A stretch of 61,985 bases of DNA from the NCBI GenBank assembly GCA_002688015.1, contig NZBT01000014.1, positions 1-61,985 on the forward strand. Direction: 5' to 3'. The notes below the pieces were generated by a model. It was not told the DNA's origin and did not search any database. It saw nothing but the letters and a program-made list of their open reading frames with translations. Position numbers and translations under genes: made by a program. Source of the stretch: Candidatus Pacearchaeota archaeon (GTDB lineage: Archaea; Nanobdellota; Nanobdellia; Pacearchaeales; GW2011-AR1). This document shows positions 376 to 61,985 of this stretch, piece by piece. Position 1 is the stretch's first letter; each line of letters begins with the position of its first letter.

Positions 376-2232
376 ATGAGTCAAGACAATCACGCAAAAA
401 AAGAGAAAACACCAGAGACACTTACAGGAGAGCTGAATTCTAATAAGAAGTATGAGCCAAATATGGTTATGCCGGGAATGCCTGCTGGTATGGGGAAGAT
501 GCCTCAAATGCCAAAGCAGAAGACCCCTGAGGAAGTTAAAGCTGAGTTTGAAGCTCTTAAGAAGAAATTAGAGAATGTTAAGAAAAAGATTCTGAAGAAA
601 TATAAATTCACAAAATTCTTGAGTGTATTGCCAGGAGTTGGATTACCTTTATTTGCAGAAGATGAAGGAATGCCTGTTGAAGTTGAAAAGACAAATCCAA
701 CATTATTGCTGATGTGTATTCCTGAAGAACAATTTAAGGATATAAATAAGATTAAAGACGAAGTTGTAAAGATTATAAAAGAAAGTAAAGAGAATGTTTG
801 GCTTTTAGTTAAGACAGAAGTTGATTTGTGGAACTATGGATTAGACAGTAAGTTTGACTTGATGGATCTTGTTTCCGGAAGTTTTCCATTATATGACAAT
901 GGATTTTTAGGAGCATTAAGACTTGCAAATATTCATAAGTCTCTTGTATTGAGAAAGTTTGAGAAATATGTTGCTACATATGCGATTGGAGGAAGTTTAG
1001 TTAGAGGAGTTGCTGATAAGGATTCTGATTTTGATTGTATTGTGATTATTGATGATACGGATGTTAAAAGAATGCCAAGGCTTGAGCTATTGGAGAAACT
1101 TAGGGCAATGATTCATGATTATATAAGAGAAGCGATGGCTTTAGCTGGAGTTAAGAATAATTTACATGTTCAAGTATGGCTTCTTACTGATTTCTGGCAG
1201 AGAGTTAGAGATGCGGAGCCTGTTGCATTTACTTTTGTTAGAGATGGGATTCCATTTTATGATAGAGGAACATTTATTCCTTGGAAATTACTTTTGAAGA
1301 TGGGCAAGATTAAGCCAAGTCCGGAAGCAGTTGATATGTTTATGAAGTCTGGAGAGCAGACTGAAAACTTACTGAAAAGAAGAATGATTGATGCAATGAT
1401 AGATATTTATTATGGAGTTATTACTCCAACACAAGCGTTGATGATGCTTGCAGGACAAGCACCTCCTGACCCTAAAGGAATGGTTGCTGAAGTGAAGAAA
1501 ATTTTAGTTGAGAAGGAAAAACTTATGTCTCTTGCTGATTTAAAGATTTTAGAAAAAGCGATTAAGTTGTTTAAGGATTATGAACATGGTAAATTAAGTG
1601 AAATTTCTGGAACAGAGCTTGATAAGTTTAAGAAGGAACATGATGGTTATGTTAAAAAGATGAAGGAGATGAGAGGAAAGATTGAAGAGAGAATGCAGGA
1701 ATATGAAGCAGAGAGAGTTCAAAATGAAATTTTTGATTTAACAAAGAGCGTTTTTGGGAATAAGTCAAGAGAATCAATAATTAAAGACTTTGATTCCGAA
1801 TTGGTAAAGAAAGGAAAAGTCCCTAGAAGAATGTTGCAAGTTATTAGAAATGTTTCAGAAATTAAGCATAAAATTAAGGGAAAGAAGAAATTGAGTCCAA
1901 CAGAGATGCAAAAGTTTACAGCAGAAGCTAATGAACTTATTTCTGTATTGACAGAATATGCTCAGAGAAAGGAACTAGTTGCTATTGAGAAGTCTTTAAT
2001 ACAAGTTAAGGGAAAGAAAGGGAATGGAGAGTTAATGGTAACGGACAAGGAGACGTTTTTAGTACAATCAGGAAAGATAAGTAAGATTGTTGGGAAAAAG
2101 CTTGTTGATTCTAATGAAGAAGAATTGAGAGAAGCAAGTAAAAAAGCTAAAGACAGTTTGAAAGTTTCTCTTTCTGGAAATGTATTTTCTGTTCTACAAA
2201 AAGAGTTGGGCGACTTTGAGATAGTTTTGTAA
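376..2232 (+). CDS. Nucleotidyltransferase (Pol-beta/MNT-type) domain protein with long helical/coiled-coil C-terminal extension
   Basis: ORF 367..2232. NTase signature GGSLVRGVADKDSDFDCIVIIDD. The following helical domain (PSPEAV...AGQAPPDP) is paralogous to ORF 15009..16004. Start moved from TTG 367 to ATG 376 because TTTAAA 347-352 is centred 27 nt upstream. Confidence 0.7.
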   Translation: MSQDNHAKKEKTPETLTGELNSNKKYEPNMVMPGMPAGMGKMPQMPKQKTPEEVKAEFEALKKKLENVKKKILKKYKFTKFLSVLPGVGLPLFAEDEGMPVEVEKTNPTLLLMCIPEEQFKDINKIKDEVVKIIKESKENVWLLVKTEVDLWNYGLDSKFDLMDLVSGSFPLYDNGFLGALRLANIHKSLVLRKFEKYVATYAIGGSLVRGVADKDSDFDCIVIIDDTDVKRMPRLELLEKLRAMIHDYIREAMALAGVKNNLHVQVWLLTDFWQRVRDAEPVAFTFVRDGIPFYDRGTFIPWKLLLKMGKIKPSPEAVDMFMKSGEQTENLLKRRMIDAMIDIYYGVITPTQALMMLAGQAPPDPKGMVAEVKKILVEKEKLMSLADLKILEKAIKLFKDYEHGKLSEISGTELDKFKKEHDGYVKKMKEMRGKIEERMQEYEAERVQNEIFDLTKSVFGNKSRESIIKDFDSELVKKGKVPRRMLQVIRNVSEIKHKIKGKKKLSPTEMQKFTAEANELISVLTEYAQRKELVAIEKSLIQVKGKKGNGELMVTDKETFLVQSGKISKIVGKKLVDSNEEELREASKKAKDSLKVSLSGNVFSVLQKELGDFEIVL

Positions 2233-2233
2233 T

Positions 2234-2273
2234 TTGTTATTACTTAAAAATTATACTTTTAGAAAGGTTTAAG
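2234..2273 (+). promoter_or_regulatory. Promoter cassette A: upstream element TTGTTATTACTT plus AGAAAGGTTTAAG (BRE/TATA) for ORF 2297
   Basis: TATA hexamer 2268-2273 is centred 27 nt upstream of ATG 2297. The cassette matches 41 of 48 positions, without gaps, with 2659-2706. Confidence 0.6.
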
Positions 2274-2296
2274 TACCTCTTGTTTTCGTTTGTTTT

Positions 2297-2656
2297 ATGA
2301 AATTAGAAGATAGAATAGATTCAACTGAAATGAGAGAGAAATTGAACCATTTAGAGGATCATGTGCCTGGTTTAGGTGATGATGTTTATGAGTTTGGAAG
2401 ACTTTTGTCTGGAAGATTAAGTGAAGTAGATTCAATGGTAATTCCTGCAGGATATAATTTGTTAGTAGAAGTATTGTTATTTGATTTAGTTGAAGGATTT
2501 GATGGAATGGGAGAGCCAATAATTAGTGAATTATCTGGAGATTCTTCGAAGATTTATCAAGTGGAAAAATATATTGAACAGATTACTAATACAGTCTGTC
2601 CTGAAAAATTTGCTCAAAAAGTGAATGCGTTTAGAGGAACAATGTCAAGATATTGA
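2297..2656 (+). CDS. Hypothetical protein (119 aa), first gene of the GHKL cluster
   Basis: Complete ORF with a correctly spaced TATA. No motif recognised. Confidence 0.55.
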   Translation: MKLEDRIDSTEMREKLNHLEDHVPGLGDDVYEFGRLLSGRLSEVDSMVIPAGYNLLVEVLLFDLVEGFDGMGEPIISELSGDSSKIYQVEKYIEQITNTVCPEKFAQKVNAFRGTMSRY

Positions 2657-2658
2657 TA

Positions 2659-2698
2659 TTGTTATTACTTTAGAATTACACTCTTAGAAAGGTTTAAA
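2659..2698 (+). promoter_or_regulatory. Promoter cassette B: TTGTTATTACTT plus AGAAAGGTTTAAA for ORF 2735
   Basis: Same element and same 27-nt spacing to AGAAAGG as cassette A. TATA 2693-2698, with ATG 2735 about 12 nt past the expected TSS. Confidence 0.55.
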
Positions 2699-2734
2699 AA
2701 CGTCTTTTATTGGATATTCTGATAGGTATTTTAT

Positions 2735-3565
2735 ATGGAAGCTAAAACTTGGAATGCAAAATTGAATGATTGGATAGTTGATAATCCTGATAGGCTGACT
2801 GAACTTAAAGAGATATTTCCAAAAACAACTCTACAAGACTATAGAAATGGAAATGTATCAAATATTGGTAAAGTGAATTCATATTCTAGAGCTATGTTAT
2901 ATAAGATTACAGGTATTGAAGTTTTTAGGCCGGATAATTATGTAGACCCAAAGACTATAACAATTGGTCAAATTGAAAGCGGAAGGTTGCCAAGAGGAAG
3001 TTTAGATATTTGGCTCGGTTCTAAAGGAATTTCAAAAAGAGAAGTTGCTGAATCTGCAGGAGTTAGTATTGATTCTGTAACTGGATACATAGAAAGCAGG
3101 TCTTCTAGAAGAAGGGTTGTAACTAAGATTGAAAGAGCATTAAAGCAATATGAAAACATAGCTCCAAAGAGAGAAAAGGATCCAGTAAGAAAGGAGCCTG
3201 CGGAAGAAGCGCCCATGAAAGAGGATAGTGAAAATACAAAATTAACTGAATTGACTAAAGCAGTTGGAGAATTAGTAGAGCAAGTAGGGGCTCTTGGTGG
3301 AAGTTATGAGAAAGATCATGAAGAGAGAAGATTAGCATTGGATAATCATTTAGATGGTCTTGTGGATCAAATAGATTATTTCAGACAATGTTCTCAAGAG
3401 GAAAGGGACCAATTAGTGTCATATTTAAGAGAGACTGGACAAACGACTAGATGGGGTTGGTTAGTAAATATGTTTGGAGGAATTCATAGAGAAAAGGGTG
3501 TGCCAAGCACATTTTTGAGAGATATGGATGTTCCAGAAAAATTAAGCCCTAGGAGAAAAAGATGA
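2735..3565 (+). CDS. Putative DNA-binding protein with two XRE-like helix-turn-helix segments and a C-terminal helical region
   Basis: LKEIFPKTTLQDYRNGNVSNIGKVNSYSRAMLYKITGIEV and KGISKREVAESAGVSIDSVTGYIESR resemble Cro/C1-type HTH. The stop overlaps the next start (ATGA at 3562-3565). Confidence 0.5.
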   Translation: MEAKTWNAKLNDWIVDNPDRLTELKEIFPKTTLQDYRNGNVSNIGKVNSYSRAMLYKITGIEVFRPDNYVDPKTITIGQIESGRLPRGSLDIWLGSKGISKREVAESAGVSIDSVTGYIESRSSRRRVVTKIERALKQYENIAPKREKDPVRKEPAEEAPMKEDSENTKLTELTKAVGELVEQVGALGGSYEKDHEERRLALDNHLDGLVDQIDYFRQCSQEERDQLVSYLRETGQTTRWGWLVNMFGGIHREKGVPSTFLRDMDVPEKLSPRRKR

Positions 3566-5181
3566 CATATATAAAACCAAAAATAACTGAAGCTGGACAA
3601 CATAGAGCAATTGTGGAAGCTGGAGATATTTATACACATCCTTTATTTGCCTTTAAAGAATATCCAACTAATGGTCTTGATGCAATTTATAGAGCAATGG
3701 CGGAAAATGGATCTTTTGGGGGAGGAGTGCTTGATATTTTGATTGACTCGCAAAATAGAAGAGTGTTAGTAAGAGATGATGGTACTGGGATGCCTAACCA
3801 AACTGTGAAAACCCTTCCTGAGAGAATTTTTGAGGGAGATAAATTTGATAGGCCTAATGAAAGAGGAGAAAAAGGTATTGGGCTTACATCTTTCATTTCC
3901 CTTGGAGGAAGAGATAGAGGATCAAATGTAGATATTATTTCTAAAGTTCCTGAAGAAAGTCAATATGGTAGACTTAATTATAGTATAAAAGATGGAAGAC
4001 TTTATCCTGATTTTACAACTGTCGAAGATGAGGAAATGGAGAAAGGTTTTGGAGGAGGATTTGAGCAAGGAACAAAAGTTGTTTTAAATCTTGATAAATT
4101 AACTTTTAATGAGAATTTTAAGAATTTAAGTGTATTAAAAAGGTTTCTTAGAGAGACATACAGCCCTCTTTTAATGAGAAGTGAGATGATTGTTTGTTTA
4201 GGATCTTTATTAGGAGAGAAAAGTGAAGTTGTTTCTCCTATGAATTATCCTGGAGTGCCTTTGTTAGGATTGACAGGTAGAACAGAAACATATCAAGCAA
4301 TGACTGTTTTTCCAGATGGAAGTAGAGGAATGGATACTTTCCCTGTTCAGGTATTATTGTTTGCAGATCCAACTTCTAAGGCAAGAAAAGTAGGAGTTTA
4401 TACAAAAGATGTTAATGTTTATGATTCTGTAACTAGGTTATTGGAAAAAGACCCTAGAGTAGCTGCACTTCCTTTGTGGAGTTCTGGACATGTTTCTGGG
4501 TTTATTAATAATATGAATTTGAGTTTAGTTTTAGGAAGAGATGGTATTAGAAGAGGATCAAAAGTATTCAAGAAATTAGTTGATGTTTTAGAAGGATTAA
4601 ATGATGAACTTTGGCCTCAGGTAGAGTCATTAGTTACTCAGAAAGGGACAGATCAACAAAACCAAGATTTAAATGAAGCTTGGAATGTGCTTAGACAGAG
4701 TTATAAAACAACAGAGCCCATTGATATAATTAGAAGAGTTAGGAATCCTCCTCAAACTCCTGCTGGCCCGAGAGAACCTAGGAAGCCAAGAGAAATTGAA
4801 CAAGAAGGAACACATTCAGATTCAGGGAGAAGAGTTCCATTTAGAGTACCGATATTAGAAGATTTTGATCTACAAGAAGAACAATTAAGATCAAGATTGG
4901 GAGAAAATTTAGGAGATCCAACTATTTTTGTAAATTCTGCTCATCCTGATTATACAAGGCTTGTTGTAAATGGAAAACCAGAGGAAAAGCAATTTTACTT
5001 AGTTAATGTTATGGCGGCAGAAGCGGCTTCTTTTGAAACAGAAAATGCAGTTTCACGTGGAAGTTTGAGAGGAAGTCCAGTAGAGATTAGTCAAATTGCA
5101 GCTAGAAGGGCGCAAGATCTTGTCTTTAATAGTATTGGGAAAAATGGAAAAGGTAGAAGAAAAAGAAAGGATAATATGTAA
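3562..5181 (+). CDS. GHKL (Bergerat-fold) ATPase, MORC/HATPase_c_3-like
   Basis: N-box EYPTNGLDAI (aa 33-42), G1 box DDGTGM (aa 72-77), G2 box GEKGIGLTSF (aa 102-111). About 400 aa of uncharacterised C-terminal region ending in a basic tail. Confidence 0.7.
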   Translation: MTYIKPKITEAGQHRAIVEAGDIYTHPLFAFKEYPTNGLDAIYRAMAENGSFGGGVLDILIDSQNRRVLVRDDGTGMPNQTVKTLPERIFEGDKFDRPNERGEKGIGLTSFISLGGRDRGSNVDIISKVPEESQYGRLNYSIKDGRLYPDFTTVEDEEMEKGFGGGFEQGTKVVLNLDKLTFNENFKNLSVLKRFLRETYSPLLMRSEMIVCLGSLLGEKSEVVSPMNYPGVPLLGLTGRTETYQAMTVFPDGSRGMDTFPVQVLLFADPTSKARKVGVYTKDVNVYDSVTRLLEKDPRVAALPLWSSGHVSGFINNMNLSLVLGRDGIRRGSKVFKKLVDVLEGLNDELWPQVESLVTQKGTDQQNQDLNEAWNVLRQSYKTTEPIDIIRRVRNPPQTPAGPREPRKPREIEQEGTHSDSGRRVPFRVPILEDFDLQEEQLRSRLGENLGDPTIFVNSAHPDYTRLVVNGKPEEKQFYLVNVMAAEAASFETENAVSRGSLRGSPVEISQIAARRAQDLVFNSIGKNGKGRRKRKDNM

Positions 5182-51100: not shown

Positions 51101-51361
51101 CAGCAAGCACTTGTAGGACACGGAGCTTCTATGTTGCTGAAGGAAAGGTATGGAAGCGATAAGACGGTTATGTATATTTCTAAAGATAGTGGAGCTGTTG
51201 CATTTGAAGATGTTATTAGAAATAAAATTGTTTGTCCATTAGATGATTCCTTAGATTCCGAACCTGTGGAGGTTTCATATGCTTTCAAGTTGCTTGTAGA
51301 TGAGTTGCTTGGGCTTGGAATAAACACCACATTTGAACTAAAAGATAAATATGAGAGATAA
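48101..51361 (+). CDS. rpoB: DNA-directed RNA polymerase subunit B (unsplit)
   Basis: 1086 aa. GDKFSAPHGQKGVVG, GGLRLGEMEQQAL and other Rpo2 blocks. Confidence 0.95.
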   Translation: MKSRNDLLVKRYLKEHSPFESNITSFNNFLNKRMQLIVDEINAGLNNEEVEIRLGKVRVAEPNIIEADGSSTVITPSIARLRNLTYSAPVFVELSVKYGEQSDSSEVEIGRIPIIVRSAACSTNGMSKEEIIDNYMDPLDHGGYFIVNGNERVIAMSEDLAPNQPFIEHGRLGLTLRVFSQRGAYRIPTTISETNEGLLDVTFSRLKNIPSIILLKSLGMIKESEIAQNIGYENDCLIVNLYEFANIKSEEDAMIYIAEKSGIQGTKKEVLDRVKQRIDSFFLPHIGTEKQSRGEKAMTLCRLIRLYLRSKDDDTIRTDKDHYANKRIKLSGDLMSDLFRVNMGILIRDIQYSLQKISKRKKFYSLKTIAKSTLFTHRVESAIATGSWIGERSGVTQNMDKTNYLAVLSQLQKITSSLPGEQENFAARTLHPTHYGRFCPIETPEGTEIGLRKNLSILAKISTAVEDNDKSIVKKFESLGLMKERPEGGGTDVFFNGNFIGFVSNSDEFTDKVRKARRKSEFPEVMSVRFDSLLEQVTMSIEVGRVLRPLIVVEGGASKLKDEHLVLLEEGKITWQELIKEGVIEYVDAAEEENVYVSIRPEELNNEHTHVEVHPIDLFGVVTSLVPFANHDQGSRLLRGSKTNKQSIGIYAANYLVRLDTNVSILHYPQKPLVRTFVYDTLDVYPSGQNIIVAVMPFEGYNMEDAVVLNKASIDRGMGRSTYFRPYSATELQYAGGLTDEITIPDKDVSGYRTEESYRHLEDDGVAFPEAEIVSGEVLIGKTTPPKFLSEARDLSIQAKKEASSSMRQAEKGIVDGVFVTIDGEGNRVVQVRTRDTRFPEPGDKFSAPHGQKGVVGLIADDKDIPFTGKGIKPDLLFNPHGIPSRMTVGYMIELLSGKAAATSGKVLDGTAFTGNTVNEIEDVLEEMGFSYDGKETMFDGVTGRKMNAKIYIGNMYYLKLNRMVKNLIHARASGKVALLTRQPIEGRARGGGLRLGEMEQQALVGHGASMLLKERYGSDKTVMYISKDSGAVAFEDVIRNKIVCPLDDSLDSEPVEVSYAFKLLVDELLGLGINTTFELKDKYER

Positions 51362-54882: not shown

Positions 54883-55299
54883 ATGGCAATAATAAACATG
54901 CAGACAATGAGGTACATCAATTTATTAGACAAGGCTTCTCATGTGAAGACAAGTAAGTGTTTTGTTTATAATAATACAATTATCTTTGCTGTTCCTAAGG
55001 ATAAGGTTTCAAAGGCCATTGGACCTAGTGCAGTTAATATTAAGAAGTTGCAGGAAAAACTTGGGAAAAAAGTCAGAATAATAAGCCAAGTAAATGATAA
55101 ATATGATGCTGGAAGATTTATTGGAGATGTTGTTTCTCCTGTTAGATTCAAAAGTGTTGAAGTTTCTGATGGAATGGTAATAATTACTGCTGGAAGTAAT
55201 CAAAGTAAAGCTAGTTTAATAGGAAGAAATAAAAGAAGGCTTATAGAGCTTAGTAAAATTATTAAGGATACATTCAGTATTGAAGTAAAGGTTGTATGA
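54883..55299 (+). CDS. nusA: Archaeal NusA-like protein (two KH domains)
   Basis: About 140 aa. AVPKDKVSKAIGPSAVNIKKLQEKLGKKVRII and LIGRNKRRLIELSKII. Position between rpoA and S12. Confidence 0.8.
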   Translation: MAIINMQTMRYINLLDKASHVKTSKCFVYNNTIIFAVPKDKVSKAIGPSAVNIKKLQEKLGKKVRIISQVNDKYDAGRFIGDVVSPVRFKSVEVSDGMVIITAGSNQSKASLIGRNKRRLIELSKIIKDTFSIEVKVV

Positions 55300-55353
55300 T
55301 TCTTATTTGAATAAAACAAACATTTTATAAATTCCATTTTATGGGTTTTTCTT

Positions 55354-55845
55354 ATGCGAGATGAAGAAGGAATTAAGAAAGTAATGATGGCTGACTTAGA
55401 AAGGAGTTCATTGAATGGTGTGAAGATTGTTGTAGGGAAGCAAACTACACCTTATAGTAGAACTGGAAAGATTATGAATGCTGTGTTTATTGTTCCTGGA
55501 AAATTATCAATTGATGGATTTTTAATTGATCTAGAAAAGGGAACGGTTTTTGAATCGGATTTAATAGATTCTGTTGGTTTTAATGATCTCTTTAATCAAA
55601 GAATGGAAAGATATAATTCTCATAGAATTAATAGTCCTATGGGTTTAGGGGAGAATTGTCGGGATCTTCCTGTTTTCAGATATTATTATTCTTTTCAAGG
55701 TTCTAGGGGAGAAAGCTCAAATGCACAAAAATTGTTAATTGTGAATAAAGTTAGGGAAATTTTAGGTCATTTAAAAGATTATTTATCTTATGATTTGGAA
55801 AACCCTTCGGATTGCAGAAAGAAGATTGAAAGATCAAGATCTTAG
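55354..55845 (+). CDS. Hypothetical protein (163 aa) inserted between nusA and rps12
   Basis: Own TATA (CATTTTATAAATTCC). No motif recognised. Confidence 0.5.
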   Translation: MRDEEGIKKVMMADLERSSLNGVKIVVGKQTTPYSRTGKIMNAVFIVPGKLSIDGFLIDLEKGTVFESDLIDSVGFNDLFNQRMERYNSHRINSPMGLGENCRDLPVFRYYYSFQGSRGESSNAQKLLIVNKVREILGHLKDYLSYDLENPSDCRKKIERSRS

Positions 55846-55912
55846 ATCTTAGCAGCATTCTGTTTCATTGAAACAGAAGCTTTTTAAACTAACATTCTAA
55901 TGGATAGTTAAG

Positions 55913-56335
55913 ATGGGATTAATGAATGCATATAAATTAATGAAAAATAGGAAAAAAGATAGATGGAGCCAGAAGGCTTACAATGCTAGAATGAAGAATC
56001 TTAAGATTAAGTCTGATCCTTTGGGAAGAGCTGCACAGGCAAAGGGGATTGTTATTGAAAAATTCCAAAAAGAAGCTGCACAGCCTAACTCTGCTATGAG
56101 AAAGTGTGCTAAAGTTCAATTAGTTAGAAATGGTATTCAAGTTGGAGCATTCATTCCGGGTAACTTAGCTCAGAAGTTTATTGATGAACACGATGAAGTT
56201 GTTATTGAGAGAATTGGTGGAAAGCAAGGAAGAGCAAAGGGAGATATAAGAGGAATTAGGTTTCAAATAATTAAAGTAAATGATCAACCATTACATAGAC
56301 TTGTAAGTGGAAAGATTGAGAAGGGAAGAAGATGA
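55913..56335 (+). CDS. rps12: Ribosomal protein S12 (uS12)
   Basis: [31 protein letters not shown]...[25 protein letters not shown]. Confidence 0.9.
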
Positions 56336-56733
56336 GTTCTGGAACAGTTAAAGGATTATCGGATGCTTATTCTATGGCAATAGAAAGAGGCCGGATTTTT
56401 CGATCTTTTGAAGTATCAGTTGCTCGAAGTCTTGATAGATTAGACAACACTCTTGTAGATCCTGAAGAATTCTTCCAAGATGCTGCAGAGAGTGCTGAAA
56501 GGAGAGTAACATTACATTCTGTTTCTGAAAAAGATGGAAATTTTACAGGTGACCCTTGTAAAATATTATCAAGTCCATATGGTCCTGAAGGAAGAATCAG
56601 ACTTCAGCCAACTAGAACGGATGGACATAGAACTTACTGGATAAAAAGTAATTTGGGGGAAAAACATTATGTTGTTGAAATTTCTTCAGCTGAAGAGGTT
56701 GAGCCTGCACCTATAGTGGAGGCCAGAAGATGA
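56332..56733 (+). CDS. Hypothetical protein (133 aa) translationally coupled to rps12
   Basis: ATGA start/stop overlap with rps12 at 56332-56335. No motif recognised. Confidence 0.5.
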
Positions 56734-57011
56734 TTTTAACAGATTTGACAGAAGCGCCATTGACTGTTGAGAAAAGAGCGATAATTTCTGGAGGAGATTC
56801 TCAAATTATAAGCGGAAAATTAAGAGAGATAGATTGTGGACAGTATCTTGTTGTTGCTAGAATTGGAGAAGAATCAGATTCTGCTGATAATTATGTTAGA
56901 CCTTTGATAACTTTAGGTGTTGATATTGGTGATGAAGAGAATCAAGATTATGGTGTTGATGTGGTCTCAATGGGAAATGAAACTAAAGAAGTGAGGGTTT
57001 ATAGAAGATAA
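56730..57011 (+). CDS. Hypothetical protein (93 aa) between rps12 and rps7
   Basis: ATGA overlap with ORF 56332 at 56730-56733. Its stop is 1 nt before the rps7 ATG. Confidence 0.5.
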   Translation: MILTDLTEAPLTVEKRAIISGGDSQIISGKLREIDCGQYLVVARIGEESDSADNYVRPLITLGVDIGDEENQDYGVDVVSMGNETKEVRVYRR

Positions 57012-57012
57012 G

Positions 57013-57654
57013 ATGGCAGAACAAGAAATACAAATGGAAGAAGGAAATAATGAAGGGGAAGGGAACTTCAAGATATTTGATCTTTATGATGCAGAAAACA
57101 TAGAGATAAAGGATCCTGCCTTAGTGCCATATATTAATTTGTCAGGGAAATTATTGGTAAAGAGTCAGGGGAGAAATGTTGAAAAGTTTGGAAAGGTGAG
57201 AGTTAATATTATTGAGAGACTTGCAAATAGATTAGCAGTTCCAGGACATATTGGAAAGAAGCATAAGATAATTACTTCTTGGGCAAGTGGGAAATATTCA
57301 AGAAATATGAAAACAGTTATGCAAGCATTTGAGATTATTGCTAAAAAGACAAACAAGAATCCTTTACAAGTTTTAGTTACAGCTATAGAAAACGGAAGTC
57401 CTAGAGATGAAATAACAATTATTGAGCATGCTGGAGCAAGATATCCTCAATCTGTGGATGCTTCTCCTTTAAGAAGAGTTGACTTAGCGATAAGATGGAT
57501 TGTTCAAGGATCATATCAAAGATGCTTTGGAAAGAAGAAGAAAATGTTTGAATCTTTGGCTGACGAAATTATAAAAGCAAGTGAAGGAAATATGGAATCA
57601 TTTTCTGTTCAAAAGAGAAATGATTCTGAGAAACAGGCTGATTCTGCTAGATAA
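57013..57654 (+). CDS. rps7: Ribosomal protein S7 (uS7)
   Basis: NPLQVLVTAIENGSPRDEITIIEHAGARYPQSVDASPLRRVDLAIRWI. Confidence 0.9.
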   Translation: MAEQEIQMEEGNNEGEGNFKIFDLYDAENIEIKDPALVPYINLSGKLLVKSQGRNVEKFGKVRVNIIERLANRLAVPGHIGKKHKIITSWASGKYSRNMKTVMQAFEIIAKKTNKNPLQVLVTAIENGSPRDEITIIEHAGARYPQSVDASPLRRVDLAIRWIVQGSYQRCFGKKKKMFESLADEIIKASEGNMESFSVQKRNDSEKQADSAR

Positions 57655-57704
57655 TAGTGCTAGGGTATAGATTTATTTATAAAATCCTACATTTTAATGG
57701 AATA

Positions 57705-58070
57705 ATGATATATAGAGAATTTACACCAATTTTCTTAAGTCAGAGTGAGCATTTGAATAGATTGAAGAAAGCATTTGTTGCTCTGGAGAAAGTTATTGGA
57801 TATGTAGATGCAAAAAAACCAATGTTAGATGATGAAGATACAGTTTTTTTGAGAGTGTATCATGAAAGAGAAGTTGATGGTGAATCAGGAATTATTGAAC
57901 ATTCAATTATTGTGCAACCAGAGAAAGGAAGAATTGTTGAATATCACTTTAATAGAGGTGTAAGAGAACATCTTCCAGTTGTGCATGGTAGTACAAAATC
58001 AGGTGTTAAGTTGTCTATTGAAGATGCTGGAAAAGATAATATTTATACTTTATTGAGAAAAAGTCCTTGA
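57705..58070 (+). CDS. Hypothetical protein (121 aa) between rps7 and EF-2
   Basis: ORF 57657..58070 trimmed to ATG 57705. TATA TTTATTTATAAAA is centred about 27 nt upstream. Confidence 0.5.
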   Translation: MIYREFTPIFLSQSEHLNRLKKAFVALEKVIGYVDAKKPMLDDEDTVFLRVYHEREVDGESGIIEHSIIVQPEKGRIVEYHFNRGVREHLPVVHGSTKSGVKLSIEDAGKDNIYTLLRKSP

Positions 58071-58074
58071 TTAA

Positions 58075-58326
58075 TTATTTTCTTATGGGACAGTAAAATA
58101 GACCATTATCTTCCATTAGTTTAGGTAATTGTGACATCCTATTATTTCTGTTGTTAGATTCTACTACTCTTGATGATTTTGATACTTCTGGAGGAACATG
58201 ATAGGAAATCTTGGGAGGAGTAGTCATATTATATGTGTGATATATAATTCCTGACATCCCAATAAATGAAAGAATTACAACTAAAGGAAAGGGTCCACAA
58301 TATGATGAACTTGATTCGTTTGACAT
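58075..58326 (-). CDS. Candidate small single-TM protein (83 aa)
   Basis: ORF 58075..58452 trimmed to MSNESSSS (ATG 58326), because the longer form would run through the EF-2 promoter. TM GPFPLVVILSFIGMSGIIY. Confidence 0.35.
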   Translation of the reverse strand: MSNESSSSYCGPFPLVVILSFIGMSGIIYHTYNMTTPPKISYHVPPEVSKSSRVVESNNRNNRMSQLPKLMEDNGLFYCPIRK

Positions 58327-58442
58327 CCTCTTTTTGCTTTTGTTATGATGGATTGGAAGTTTAAAAATTCTTGTAAACAGAAGTTTTAAAAACCTAATTT
58401 TATATGAAGGAATTCTATTCATCAATTGAATTAGAATATATA

Positions 58443-60620
58443 ATGGCACCAACAGATAAGAACACAGATAAGGTTACGCAGCTTATGGGAGATCCAGAGC
58501 ATATTAGAAATATAGCTATTGCTGCGCATATTGATCATGGGAAGACAACTTTTTCAGATAATTTATTGGCTGGAGCAGGAATGATGTCTGAGGAACTTGC
58601 TGGAAAGGCTAGGACATTAGATTTTCACGAAGATGAGGCTACAAGAGGAATTACAATTGATTCTGCTAACGTTTCTATGGTTCACACTTGGGATAATGCA
58701 GATTTTTTGATTAACTTGATTGATACTCCTGGACATGTTGACTTTGGAGGAGACGTTACAAGAGCTATGAGGGCTGTTGATGGAGCAATTGTTCTTGTTT
58801 GTGCTAGTGAGGGAATAATGCCTCAGACTGAAACTGTTTTACGACAAGCTTTGAAAGAAAGAGTTAAGCCGATTTTGTTCATTAATAAAGTTGATAGATT
58901 AATTAGGGAAGTTAAGTTGACTCCTGAACAAATGCAAGAGAGATTTGTTGGAATCATAAATAAAGTTAATGAACTGATTAAGAACATTGCAGAGCCAGAA
59001 TATGGTAAAAAGTGGCAAGTAAATGTTGCTGATGGATCTGTAGCTTTTGGATCTGCATTTCATAATTGGGCCATGAGTGTTCCATTCATGAAAGATAATA
59101 ACTTGAGCTTTAAAGATGTTATAGAAGCTTATGAGGGTTCTGATGATAAATATAAAGAACTAGCAAAAAAGGCGCCGTTACATCGAGTTGTTTTAGATAT
59201 GGTTATTGATCACGTTCCAAATCCAAAGTTTGCTCAAGAATATAGAATTCCAAAGATTTGGCATGGAGATATTGAAAGTAAGTTTGGAGAGGATTTGAAA
59301 AATGCAAATCCTAATGGAGACCCTGCATTTGTTTGTACTAAAATTGTTATTGATAAGCAAGCAGGAGAAGTTGCTGCCGGAAGATTGTTTTCAGGAACAA
59401 TAAAGGCTGGAGAGCCTGTTTATATGAATTTAGCTAAAAGAAATGTTAATGTTCAGCAAGTAAGTATTTACAAGGGAGCTCAGAGAATTCAAGTTGATCA
59501 AGTTAAAGCTGGAAATATTATTGGTATTGTAGGATTGAAGGGAGTTTTTGCAGGGGAGACAGTAAGTAAAGGTGAGATAGAACCATTTGAAGCTATTAAG
59601 CACTTGTTCGAGCCTGTTGTTACAAAGAGTATTGAGGCTGAAAAGGCTGCTGATTTGCCAAAGTTAGTTGAAGTATTGAGACAAGTTGGTAAGGAAGATC
59701 CAAGTATACACATAGAGATTAATGAAGAAACAGGAGAAAACTTAATTTCCGGAATGGGAGAATTACATTTGGAGATTATTGAAAATAGAATTAAGACAGA
59801 GAAGAATTTGAATGTTAAGACTGGATCTCCAATAATTGTTTATAGAGAAGCAGTTACTGGAGAAAGTGAGGCTGTGCAATCTAGAACTCCGAACGGACAT
59901 AACATCCTTTTCTTTTCAATTGAACCTTTAGAAGAAGAAGTTTATCAGGCCATAGAATCTGGGGAGCTAGCAGATGGGAAATTAAGAAAGAAGGCAGAGG
60001 AAGTTTGGGCTGTCTTGTCTGAGAAGGGAATGAGTAATGATGAAGCAAGACAAGTTAAAGAAATTTATAAGGGGAACTTGTTTGAAGATAGAACAAGAGG
60101 TATTGTAATATTAGGAGAAGTTATTGAATCTATTTTGGACGGATGGAGACTTGTGGTAGATGCTGGGCCAATGGCAAAAGAGCCATTGACAAAGACTAAA
60201 ATTATTTTGCATGATGCTAAGTTGCACGTTGATCATATGCATAGAGGGCCAGCTCAGATTTATCCTTGTGTTAGAAAAGGAATTTTTGAATCAATGCAGA
60301 AAGCAGGAGCTGCTTTACTTGAGCCAATTCAGACACATCAGATTGAAGCTCCAGTTGATTTTATGGGATCTTTGACTGCTTTAGTTTCTTCAAAGCGTGG
60401 AGTTTTAGAAGATGTTGAGCAGGAAAATCAGAGTGTTGTTATTAAAGCAAAGATTCCAGTTAGTGAAATGATAGGATGGAGTAATGACTTGCGTTCCGAG
60501 ACGGAAGGACGTGGTGTTTCCAGTTTAATGGATCAGAAATTCGAGAAATTGCCTGCTTCTCTTCAGGAAGATGTTGTTAAGAAGATTAGAGATAGAAAGG
60601 GTCTTTCTGAAAATCAGTAG
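58443..60620 (+). CDS. fusA: Translation elongation factor 2 (aEF-2)
   Basis: IRNIAIAAHIDHGKTT, LIDTPGHVDF, NKVDR. Start moved to MAPTDKN (ATG 58443) because TATA GTTTTAAAAACC 58384-58395 lies too close to ATG 58404. Confidence 0.95.
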   Translation: MAPTDKNTDKVTQLMGDPEHIRNIAIAAHIDHGKTTFSDNLLAGAGMMSEELAGKARTLDFHEDEATRGITIDSANVSMVHTWDNADFLINLIDTPGHVDFGGDVTRAMRAVDGAIVLVCASEGIMPQTETVLRQALKERVKPILFINKVDRLIREVKLTPEQMQERFVGIINKVNELIKNIAEPEYGKKWQVNVADGSVAFGSAFHNWAMSVPFMKDNNLSFKDVIEAYEGSDDKYKELAKKAPLHRVVLDMVIDHVPNPKFAQEYRIPKIWHGDIESKFGEDLKNANPNGDPAFVCTKIVIDKQAGEVAAGRLFSGTIKAGEPVYMNLAKRNVNVQQVSIYKGAQRIQVDQVKAGNIIGIVGLKGVFAGETVSKGEIEPFEAIKHLFEPVVTKSIEAEKAADLPKLVEVLRQVGKEDPSIHIEINEETGENLISGMGELHLEIIENRIKTEKNLNVKTGSPIIVYREAVTGESEAVQSRTPNGHNILFFSIEPLEEEVYQAIESGELADGKLRKKAEEVWAVLSEKGMSNDEARQVKEIYKGNLFEDRTRGIVILGEVIESILDGWRLVVDAGPMAKEPLTKTKIILHDAKLHVDHMHRGPAQIYPCVRKGIFESMQKAGAALLEPIQTHQIEAPVDFMGSLTALVSSKRGVLEDVEQENQSVVIKAKIPVSEMIGWSNDLRSETEGRGVSSLMDQKFEKLPASLQEDVVKKIRDRKGLSENQ

Positions 60621-60765: not shown

Positions 60766-61005
60766 TTGGCACTTAAAACATTTAACATAGATGCTGAGAT
60801 ATATGGTGAGTTTAGTAAGCATTGTAAGGAACATGGAATTTCTATGAGTAAAAAGGTAGAGAAATTTATTGCTGAGGAATTAGGCCAAATTAAGTTGAGT
60901 CCTAAGAGAAAACAAGGAGACGGATTTGAGAACAAAGTTGCTGAAGAAAGACAGGAAAGAGAGATTGAATTGAGTGATGATCATCCACTTTCTAAATATT
61001 GTTGA
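60766..61005 (+). CDS. Ribbon-helix-helix (CopG/antitoxin-like) small protein inserted between EF-2 and EF-1alpha
   Basis: KTFNIDAEIYGEFSKHCKEHGISMSKKVEKFIAEEL fits the beta-strand/helix/helix RHH pattern. TTG start. Confidence 0.5.
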   Translation: MALKTFNIDAEIYGEFSKHCKEHGISMSKKVEKFIAEELGQIKLSPKRKQGDGFENKVAEERQEREIELSDDHPLSKYC

Positions 61006-61192: not shown

Positions 61193-61985
61193 ATGGCTAA
61201 AGAAAAACCAATCATAAATGTTGCCTTTGTTGGGCACGTTGATCATGGAAAGAGTACAGCGATAGGTCACCTTATGTTTAAAGCTGGGAAACTTCCAGAA
61301 CAAGAGTTAAAGAAATTGAAGGAAGAGGCTGAGAAGCATGGAAAACCTGGTTTTGAATTCGCATATTACATGGATAAGTTTAAGGAAGAGAGAGAAAGAG
61401 GAGTTACTATTGACTTAGCATATAAGAAGGTTGTAACACCTAAGAGATCTATTACAATAATTGATGCACCAGGCCACAAGGATTTTGTTAAGAACATGAT
61501 TACAGGAGCTAGTCAGGCAGATGCTGCTTTCTTGACAATTGCTGCTAAGGAAGGTGTACAGCCTCAGACTAAGGAGCACTTATGGTTGTTAAGAACTATG
61601 GGAGTTAAGGAAATCGCTGTGAATATTAACAAGATGGATACTGTTGACTATAAAGAAGAAGCTTTCAATAAAGCTAAAGAAGATGTATCTGCATTGCTTA
61701 AGGTTGTTGGAATTGATGCTGAAAAGACTACTTTTTTGGCGGTTTCTGGTTTGAAGGGAGATAATGTTAAAGAAAAATCGACTAATATGCCTTGGTATAA
61801 GGGTCCAACTTTGTGGGAACAATTAGATCTTTTCGAAGAGCCTAAGAAACCTACTGATTTGCCTATGAGAATGCCAATTCAAGATGTTTATGAAATTACT
61901 GGTATCGGTACTGTTCCTGTTGGAAAGATCGAGACTGGTATTATGAAAATAGGTCAGAAGGTGATAGTTCTTCCAGGGAGAAGCG
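61193..61985 (+). CDS. tuf: Translation elongation factor 1-alpha (aEF-1alpha), 5' part; runs off the window end
   Basis: Hand translation [29 protein letters not shown]...[10 protein letters not shown]...NKMD. It is absent from the ORF track because no stop lies in the window. TTTAAA 61159-61164 is upstream. Confidence 0.9.

Follow-up and report, generated by a model that had tools for sequence, protein, structure and literature searches.

Unrelated small genes in a fast-turnover slot between S12 and S7 in a family of DPANN archaea

Contig NZBT01000014.1 of a Candidatus Pacearchaeota archaeon (assembly GCA_002688015.1) carries an rpoB-rpoA-nusA-S12-S7-EF2 gene cluster in which small open reading frames (ORFs) lie between the conserved genes, two of them wedged between the genes for ribosomal proteins S12 and S7. 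Here, we describe five such ORFs, named A to E, in the 61,985 nt of this contig (hereafter the window), together with the same junctions in related genomes. We show that the S12-S7 junction is a fast-turnover slot for unrelated small genes, an insertion hot spot, and that one family of Woesearchaeota/Pacearchaeota-type DPANN archaea typically has this layout. With moderate confidence, we read A to D as lineage-restricted orphan passenger genes in insertion slots of the cluster, with B and C predicted to be coupled to the genes that flank them. Our best guess is that they encode small cytoplasmic proteins with an accessory role, produced in concert with S12 and S7, since their patchy presence points to accessory proteins and not to core parts of the ribosome. 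An earlier note on this DNA had instead viewed the ORFs as stably embedded and, from that, as lineage-specific ribosome- or translation-associated factors, with selfish insertion as the alternative.

The S12-S7 junction as an insertion slot

Few gene pairs are as widely conserved across life as adjacent S12 and S7. We drew S12-S7 loci from species-representative genomes, a metagenome scan and named genomes; the related loci belong to metagenome-assembled genomes named Candidatus Woesearchaeota, Pacearchaeota or Nanoarchaeota, DPANN genomes of 0.4-1.3 Mb. The synteny comparison that the earlier note had proposed for this interval covers 83 distinct loci, and 41 of them hold an insert of more than 100 nt between the two genes. 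Small ORFs are found in 38 of these 41 inserts, 48 ORFs altogether, with lengths of 56-155 amino acids (aa; median 103), and 31 inserts are at least 98% coding. Where the slot is filled, its usual load is one or two small ORFs, rising to about seven. The fit is close: 76 of 86 slot junctions (88%) measure -4 to +2 nt, a range that takes in 25% of the adjacent same-strand gene pairs of the window's genome, and Shine-Dalgarno (SD)-like tetramers lie 4-18 nt 5' of 64% of slot starts against a background of 18%.

Turnover of the slot was followed on a maximum-likelihood tree of S12+S7 with 98 rows, comprising 87 ingroup rows and 11 outgroup rows from Methanomassiliicoccales and Methanosarcinales, in which S12 and S7 are adjacent. 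The two genes overlap or lie 0-7 nt apart in all 11 outgroup loci and in 40 of the 87 ingroup loci; an insert is present in none of the outgroup rows and in 47 of the ingroup rows. Presence and absence of the insert changed at least 25 times on this tree, 15 of the changes being forced by well-supported branches. Content can even differ between loci with nearly identical flanks, as in the pairs L099 and L136, L067 and L038, L040 and L120, and L078 and L082. In the first of these pairs, L099 has a 100-aa ORF where L136 has none, and alignment places the extra DNA exactly between the S12 stop codon and the S7 ATG. The inserted ORF has no relative in the L136 genome, and we therefore rejected this nearest relative as the source of the recent L099 insert.

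An all-against-all phmmer comparison sorted the slot ORFs into families of 8, 5, 4, 3, 2, 2 and 2 members and left about 29 singletons. Comparing the profiles of these families, at least seven in number, with one another found no link (hhalign probabilities all below 5%), and a deep common origin of the slot families was rejected on this basis. One family, F1, is single copy and found only at the S12-S7 junction. The predicted isoelectric points (pI) of slot proteins have a median of 6.7, with 22 acidic and 15 basic proteins. The stable embedding that the earlier note had assumed is thus not what the relatives display: about half of the loci have nothing in the slot, its occupants are unrelated, and it has been filled or emptied at least 25 times.

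Insertion is not confined to this junction. In a survey that found an S12-S7 insert in 8 of 20 genomes, rpoH-rpoB was uninterrupted in all 19 genomes, while rpoB-rpoA held an insert in 6 of 19, each of 174-323 nt with seamless ORFs of 54-97 aa (loci L163, L165, L169, L175, L180 and L181, in genomes G158, G130, G180, G119, G229 and G142). The window has no insert at rpoB-rpoA, only a 3-nt gap at 51361/51365. The rpoA-nusA, nusA-S12 and S7-EF-2 junctions are widely variable. Acceptance of inserts is therefore a property of several cluster junctions in the family, and not of S12-S7 alone.

Several further features of the slot deserve record. In locus L082 (Ga0209541_10041497, 2078-4005), about seven small ORFs are packed tightly into a 1.9-kb array between S12 and S7; L078, separated from it by a path of 0.04 on the S12+S7 tree, has a single 77-aa ORF there. 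Pfam searches with 20 slot proteins of relatives returned sub-threshold matches only, among them HicA for family F2 (E 0.05) and PadR/winged-helix and HTH_45 for the L133 insert (E 0.04-0.09). A pattern characteristic of winged-helix DNA-binding domains, '..G(L/I)(I/V)..(strand)..Y.LT..G..', recurs in the inserts of L133, L099, L093 and L073 and in family F3 (L067, L076, L092, L104). Unrelated slot ORFs also end in similar tails (..EAVA*, ..VVA*, ..AIAK*) encoded by GGAGGCAGTTGCTTAA-A-ATG (L011, L041, L073, L089, L124 and others), which appears to be a common S7 translation-initiation region into which each slot ORF reads. Slots with two ORFs often have alike 3' ends (L080, L089).

Anatomy and predicted expression of the locus

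The features of the window between nusA and EF-2, all on the plus strand except ORF E, are as follows.

54883-55299, plus strand: nusA (archaeal, KH domains), 138 aa, Pfam KH_5 and KH_1; conserved left flank of the nusA-S12 slot
55323-55331, plus strand: TATA-like box TTTTATAAA, 30 nt 5' of the ORF A ATG
55354-55845, plus strand: ORF A, 163 aa, pI 8.8
55881-55889, plus strand: TATA-like box CTTTTTAAA, 31 nt 5' of the S12 ATG; probable promoter of S12-B-C-S7
55913-56335, plus strand: S12 (uS12), 140 aa, pI 10.7; Pfam Ribosom_S12_S23, E 2.5e-35
56315-56338, plus strand: left copy of an imperfect 24-nt direct repeat, core AGAAGATGA; spans the S12 3' end and the B start
56332-56733, plus strand: ORF B, 133 aa, pI 5.4
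56713-56736, plus strand: right copy of the imperfect 24-nt direct repeat; spans the B 3' end and the C start and includes GGAGG
56730-57011, plus strand: ORF C, 93 aa, pI 4.4
57013-57654, plus strand: S7 (uS7), 213 aa, pI 9.3; Pfam Ribosomal_S7, E 4.2e-34
57672-57684, plus strand: TATA-like box TTTATTTATAAAA, 29-33 nt 5' of the ORF D ATG
57705-58070, plus strand: ORF D, 121 aa, pI 6.6; an alternative GTG start at 57657 would give 137 aa
58075-58326, minus strand: ORF E, 83 aa, one predicted membrane helix; doubtful gene
58443-60620, plus strand: EF-2, 725 aa, right flank of the block; ATG of MAPTDK... at 58443

The six-frame ORF list and the sequence itself place all five ORFs where the earlier note had put them; the EF-2 start is corrected to 58443. 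They likewise agree with its account of the junctions around B and C: the S12 stop and the B start have a common ATGA at 56332-56335 (-4 nt), the B stop and the C start have another at 56730-56733 (-4 nt), and one base separates the C stop (TAA, 57009-57011) from the S7 ATG at 57013 (+1 nt).

A scan upstream of 334 long ORFs of the window's genome counted 149 TATA-like hexamers between -30 and -26 from the ATG and 9-33 in other bins, indicating that leaderless mRNAs are the rule in this genome. A TATA-like box stands in the expected register before A (-30, at the genome-wide peak, in agreement with the earlier note's claim that A has its own TATA), S12 (-31), D (-29) and EF-1alpha (-34), and the same scan found none at -30 for B, C or S7. 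These positions support the prediction that A and D have their own promoters of the leaderless type. S12, B, C and S7 probably form one transcription unit, since there is a TATA before S12 and none before the other three, and the most economical reading of the region comprises four units: [nusA], [A], [S12-B-C-S7] and [D].

In Haloferax volcanii and E. coli, termination-reinitiation coupling is strict where two genes overlap (-4 or -1 nt) or have a very short spacer between them, and it is lost when the spacer reaches about 20 nt (PMC6728339, PMC10666635). The S12/B, B/C and C/S7 junctions, at -4, -4 and +1 nt, have the geometry of such pairs, and a GGAGG motif lies 8-12 nt 5' of the C start, inside the 3' end of B. 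This anatomy supports the earlier note's proposal that B and C are transcribed and translated together with S12 and S7, and from it we infer both the single transcript and reinitiation along it. We propose that a leaderless S12-B-C-S7 mRNA would start from the TATA 31 nt 5' of S12, and that terminating ribosomes would restart at the ATGA and TAAGATG junctions to make B, C and S7, with the SD-like GGAGG in the 3' end of the preceding ORF helping reinitiation. Any DNA that lands between S12 and S7 would then have to be an open, tightly abutted frame or S7 synthesis would suffer, a requirement that would explain the seamless packing of slot ORFs. Rfam found no RNA element in the S12-S7 region, and a hidden RNA element at this junction was rejected.

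Metagenome assembly and ORF calling in AT-rich DNA could produce such a locus artificially, through chimeric joins or spurious frames, and two contigs that share this DNA do have assembly flaws. A second contig of the same bin (C8:69912-75785, reverse strand) is 100% identical to the window from 56081 to about 61192 and then, within EF-1alpha (61193-61985), diverges by about 20% with indels. We rejected C8 as a strain variant; it is an identical, redundant contig end with an assembly fork between two EF-1alpha variants outside the orphan region, so that one EF-1alpha end may stem from another organism. Another assembly of the locus, L035 (ENA ERZ5402418, NODE_120358), is probably chimeric just upstream of A: at low coverage, its bases 1-284 encode a PanC-like C-terminus from an AT-rich organism fused to window base 55361, and the fusion entered the protein collection as a 204-aa 'variant' of A. 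Against these, the junctions of the locus recur at 99.9-100% identity in independent assemblies (Logan L033, JGI L034, Tara L062, ENA L035), as well as in contig C8, so the chimera that the earlier note had listed as a possible refutation is not borne out. Homologs of A and C also occupy the same positions in other genomes, as described below.

Codon usage argues in the same direction. We scored the ORFs with a model that took its codon usage from 250 long ORFs of this 592-kb genome; under it, 100-codon pieces of real genes have a mean of +0.208 (sd 0.13) and shadow ORFs a mean of -0.27 (95th percentile +0.10, maximum +0.212). The scores of A (+0.215), B (+0.221), C (+0.379) and D (+0.310) exceed those of all or nearly all shadow ORFs, and because they fall in the range of real genes, A to D look like real genes. 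The codon-usage check proposed in the earlier note thus speaks for these four and leaves E ambiguous (-0.04, within the shadow-ORF range), a point in favour of artefact for E. At about 33% GC, moreover, chance alone would seldom produce ORFs of 93-163 codons. We consider an artefactual origin of the locus extremely improbable.

Origin and constraint of the orphan genes

None of the five ORFs has a match in Pfam, NCBIfam, PHROGs or PADLOC, and a sequence-profile search of the PDB was empty, so that with Pfam, NCBIfam and PDB no similarity to a known ribosomal or assembly-factor family was found. Relatives of A and C do exist. An exhaustive HMMER search of 1.84 billion representatives with A returned P0008 (E 2.8e-6) and P0009 (E 4.9e-4), and a subsequent profile search added a third relative. 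All three are 34-39% identical to A and all lie between nusA and S12, in the arrangements rpoA-nusA-A' (L060), A'-S12 (L061) and nusA-A'-S12 (genome G343, L145). The motif PVFRYYY is invariant among family members. The rate of nonsynonymous change (dN) of A is 0.65-0.77 (window against L060, L061 and L145), compared with 0.20-0.29 for nusA (against L060 and L145), whose product is 50-73% identical between the window and relatives. A thus belongs to a small, fast-evolving family that is tied to the nusA-S12 slot and appears to be under purifying selection; in the scheme we propose, this is a separate family and A has its own promoter.

C has one homolog in locus L081, 51% identical and in the layout S12-ATGA-C'-ATGA-S7, where the same S12 3' end stands directly 5' of C' and B is missing. 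A second, of 87 aa, lies in genome G181 (L042; BLASTP 9e-5, jackhmmer 1.6e-17). The C family therefore spans three lineages, always directly 5' of S7; C was not found in 300 related genomes. Since the window and L081 are sisters on the S12+S7 tree (support 98/95), C would have been present in, and inherited from, their common ancestor, and the absence of B from L081 means that B was either gained later in the window's lineage, the history that we favour, or lost in L081. Between these two loci, C has a dN of 0.40 and a synonymous rate (dS) of 0.81, giving a dN/dS of about 0.49, against a dN of 0.055 and dN/dS of 0.08 for S12 and a dN of 0.22 and dN/dS of 0.18 for S7, although these ratios are rough because dS is at or near saturation between the compared lineages. 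C thus also appears to be under purifying selection. A and C evolve 2-7 times faster than their neighbours, and for this reason most slot ORFs look like orphans. The dN/dS check suggested in the earlier note accordingly points to purifying selection on A and C and is not computable for B and D, which have no relatives. Strain variants offered no second route: L033 and L034, at 99.9% identity, have two changes only, both non-synonymous and both in C (K15E, A17T), and we dropped dN/dS from these variants because two changes are too few.

B is a strict orphan. A word search of 5.8 billion proteins, six-frame searches of 40 and 300 related genomes (with HMMER over the 300), and searches of about 120 fetched loci, viral contigs and the rest of its own genome all failed to find a homolog. 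B is bracketed by the 24-nt repeat, whose copies are identical at 18 of 24 bases and spaced 398 nt apart, the length of B, with the consequence that the end of B (..IVEARR*) resembles the end of S12 (..IEKGRR*). The repeat may be the scar of a recombination event, or it may mark an initiation region that was re-created for the following cistron. On its gain, B may have taken along a copy of the S12 3' end, or the copy may have been made anew. We rejected B as a diverged S12, since it has no DNA or six-frame similarity to S12 or the genome beyond this end repeat, and as a diverged duplicate of C, since its alignment to three C-family members is no better than to shuffles (p 0.78-0.96).

The S7-EF-2 slot, itself variable, contains D and E, which the earlier note had listed together, D as an orphan and E as a membrane protein; D is gene-like, and E is not convincingly so. 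D, with its TATA at -29, is a strict orphan: it finds only itself among 5.8 billion proteins, five hits in 300 family genomes (E 0.03-0.05 per genome) are no more than expected by chance, and it is unlike the ORF in the same slot of L081. E is probably not a gene. In addition to its ambiguous codon score, its exact 83-aa sequence is absent from a 15-billion-protein collection, its TATA is off-register (-40 instead of -30), and neither BLASTP (E 0.98) nor a shuffle test (p 0.14) gives it significant similarity to the membrane ORF that L081 carries on the minus strand in the corresponding position, for which reason we also rejected E as the positional ortholog of that ORF.

The pattern of rapid gain and loss raises the possibility that selfish or conflict cassettes, such as mobile elements, toxin-antitoxin modules, defence genes or virus-derived genes, target these operon junctions. 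The direct repeat around B would fit such an origin, as would the ATGA overlap of B and C, which is shared by many toxin-antitoxin modules, and pairs of a RelE/ParE-like toxin and a small antitoxin do occupy the S7-EF-2 slot of L038 (4566-5078) and L010 (2140-2470). The ORFs of the window, however, have no matches in PADLOC, PHROGs or Pfam and no relatives in 2.9 million viral contigs; they are single copy per genome and position-specific; and the junctions have no room for attachment sites, no terminal-repeat machinery and no integrase or transposase nearby. Moreover, C occurs without B in L081, and therefore B and C are not an obligate pair. We thus regard selfish cassettes as an improbable source of these genes. 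The earlier note's alternative of selfish insertion is upheld in that the junction is an insertion hot spot, and finds no support as far as a mobile element is concerned.

Could the slot genes instead be what the earlier note had favoured, lineage-specific ribosome- or translation-associated proteins? B and C, and perhaps A and D, might for example be acidic escorts or chaperones of the basic S12 and S7 proteins. The co-translation geometry of S12-B-C-S7 is suggestive in this respect, B and C are acidic (pI 5.4 and 4.4) beside S12 and S7 (pI 10.7 and 9.3), the A and C families keep a fixed position, and subunits of heteromeric complexes are overrepresented among closely spaced gene pairs (PMC10666635). 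Yet a factor serving the ribosome should be present throughout the lineage that shares it, and B and C are not: about half of the loci lack an insert, at least seven unrelated families fill the slot elsewhere, very close relatives differ in its content, and the sister locus L081 lacks B. Slot proteins have no common chemistry, none of the five ORFs resembles a known factor, and inserts of the same type occur at rpoB-rpoA, between genes for RNA polymerase subunits. New ribosome-associated factors are thus not borne out by the comparison, and we consider them quite unlikely.

We therefore return to A to D as orphan passenger genes, and several points weigh against this reading as well. The enrichment of tightly coupled pairs for heteromeric-complex subunits leaves scope for a physical association of B or C with S12 or S7 (PMC10666635), and the dN/dS values given above are rough. 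Our word-based protein search misses relatives at 35-40% identity and would have missed those of A; the exhaustive HMMER search covered A alone, and for B, C and D six-frame HMMER over 300 family genomes was empty. C is predicted, at low confidence, to be all-beta, and single-sequence AlphaFold2 models of B and C (pLDDT 38.6 and 46.8) are unusable for fold search. Finally, selection at the protein level is not demonstrable for B and D, which have no relatives and may be open frames without a protein function.

This last point leads to a further explanation, in which B and D are proto-genes or relay frames, kept open only so that ribosomes reach S7 and encoding peptides that have no function yet. 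The absence of relatives of B and D from everything searched, the extreme turnover of the slot, the retention of junction geometry and SD motifs across unrelated ORFs, and the dependence of reinitiation on distance (PMC10666635) are all consistent with this idea. On the other hand, B and D are no less gene-like in codon usage than S12, S7 and nusA, and D has its own predicted promoter and relays nothing. Proteins of the A, C, F1, F2 and F3 families are conserved well above neutral expectation, with synonymous sites saturated, and simple deletion, evidently frequent here, would restore coupling more cheaply. It is possible, but in our judgement unlikely, that B and D are no more than such frames.

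A related, tentative proposal to which we assign a low probability is that coupled junctions of reduced DPANN genomes, namely S12-S7 and rpoB-rpoA, act as gene nurseries. S7 or RpoA would be made only if ribosomes were relayed across the junction, and inserted DNA would thus be kept open, tight and translated at ribosomal-protein levels. Such forced high expression would expose random or foreign sequence to selection and yield a stream of new, fast-evolving small proteins, among which B would be very young and C and A somewhat older.

Relation to known systems and neighbouring features

The closest described concept is the insertion of ORFans into native operons. Such genes frequently enter native operons and come under the control of the resident promoter, and their location is a poor guide to function; examples include an ORFan between ancient operon parts (sdhCDAB-b0725-sucABCD) and the misleading locations of flhE and btuE (PMC1480536). 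Like the ORFans of Price, Arkin and Alm (2006), the genes described here lack relatives beyond a narrow group and sit beside native genes: A has three relatives, C has two, B and D have none, and all relatives belong to one archaeal family in which S12 and S7 are adjacent in the absence of an insert and L081 reads S12-C'-S7. Unlike those ORFans, they are inserted inside a pair of universal ribosomal-protein genes predicted to be coupled and not at an operon end, the insertion recurs at one junction in about half of an archaeal family with unrelated ORFs and very fast turnover, and slot ORFs join their neighbours stop to start and supply an SD for the cistron that follows. It is this combination of site, frequency, diversity of occupants and fit that is unusual, and our literature search found no report of orphan slots at S12-S7 in DPANN.

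The junctions themselves resemble the coupled pairs of Huber et al. (2019, 2023), with ATGA (-4), -1 and 0 to +2 nt arrangements and an SD inside the upstream gene (PMC6728339, PMC10666635). The partners here, however, are orphan ORFs and not known complex subunits, the coupling is predicted from the sequence, and the chain has been lengthened by insertion, from S12 to B to C to S7. In E. coli, the intercistronic region between S12 and S7 of the str operon is reportedly the site of S7 translational autoregulation, as described by the Nomura laboratory in the 1980s-1990s. The junction is the same, as is the dependence of S7 synthesis on the end of S12 translation that we predict here, but in E. 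coli about 100 nt of non-coding regulatory RNA separate the two genes, whereas the extra DNA of the archaeal slot is coding and hypervariable, fills the gap completely and has no Rfam match.

Two other classes of genes invite comparison. Phage morons and free-standing homing-endonuclease genes also place unrelated small genes at the same junction of collinear genomes in a patchy manner. Morons bring their own promoter and terminator, and homing genes, which are multi-copy or mobile, encode nuclease domains; B and C, in contrast, have neither their own promoter nor a nuclease domain, are single copy and have no viral relatives. Eukaryotes have dedicated ribosomal-protein chaperones, such as Yar1 for uS3 and Tsr2 for eS26, which form conserved families. 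The acidic slot proteins could likewise meet a basic ribosomal protein during its synthesis, but no sequence or fold evidence points to such a role, and their occurrence is patchy and involves non-homologous occupants.

Even the S12-S7 pair, then, can take in new genes while its coupling geometry is kept, which calls for caution when function is annotated from operon neighbourhood in DPANN and candidate phyla radiation (CPR) genomes. The slot gathers about 50 small ORFs, independent and unrelated, at a single defined and presumably highly expressed position that is empty in close relatives, and it offers a natural system for the origin of orphan genes, their fitting into polycistronic translation and their loss. 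Such slots may also provide strain-level markers in otherwise conserved marker-gene contigs, and may be a source of abundant small proteins in organisms that depend on host interaction.

Some neighbouring features complete the picture. The earlier note had remarked that no L30e gene lies between rpoA and nusA. This holds as a lineage trait: rpoA is directly next to nusA in relatives as well, the 83%-complete genome has only one gene of the L7Ae/L30e family (C12:247-516), and L30e seems to be missing from the cluster throughout the family. In many relatives, similarity to the EF-2 of the window begins only at residue 34, with a long extra ORF segment after the GHVDHGK P-loop (L036/L119, L041/L125, L044, L050, L077-L079, L088, L114, L136 and L143; the L036 frame is 505 aa). 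This segment, which the EF-2 of the window lacks, looks like an intein. Downstream of EF-2, the window carries a 79-aa ribbon-helix-helix (RHH)-type ORF (60766-61005) with counterparts of 44-52% identity 3' of EF-2 in at least four loci (L051, L052, L055, L117); unlike B and D, this ORF is a conserved neighbour rather than an isolated insertion.

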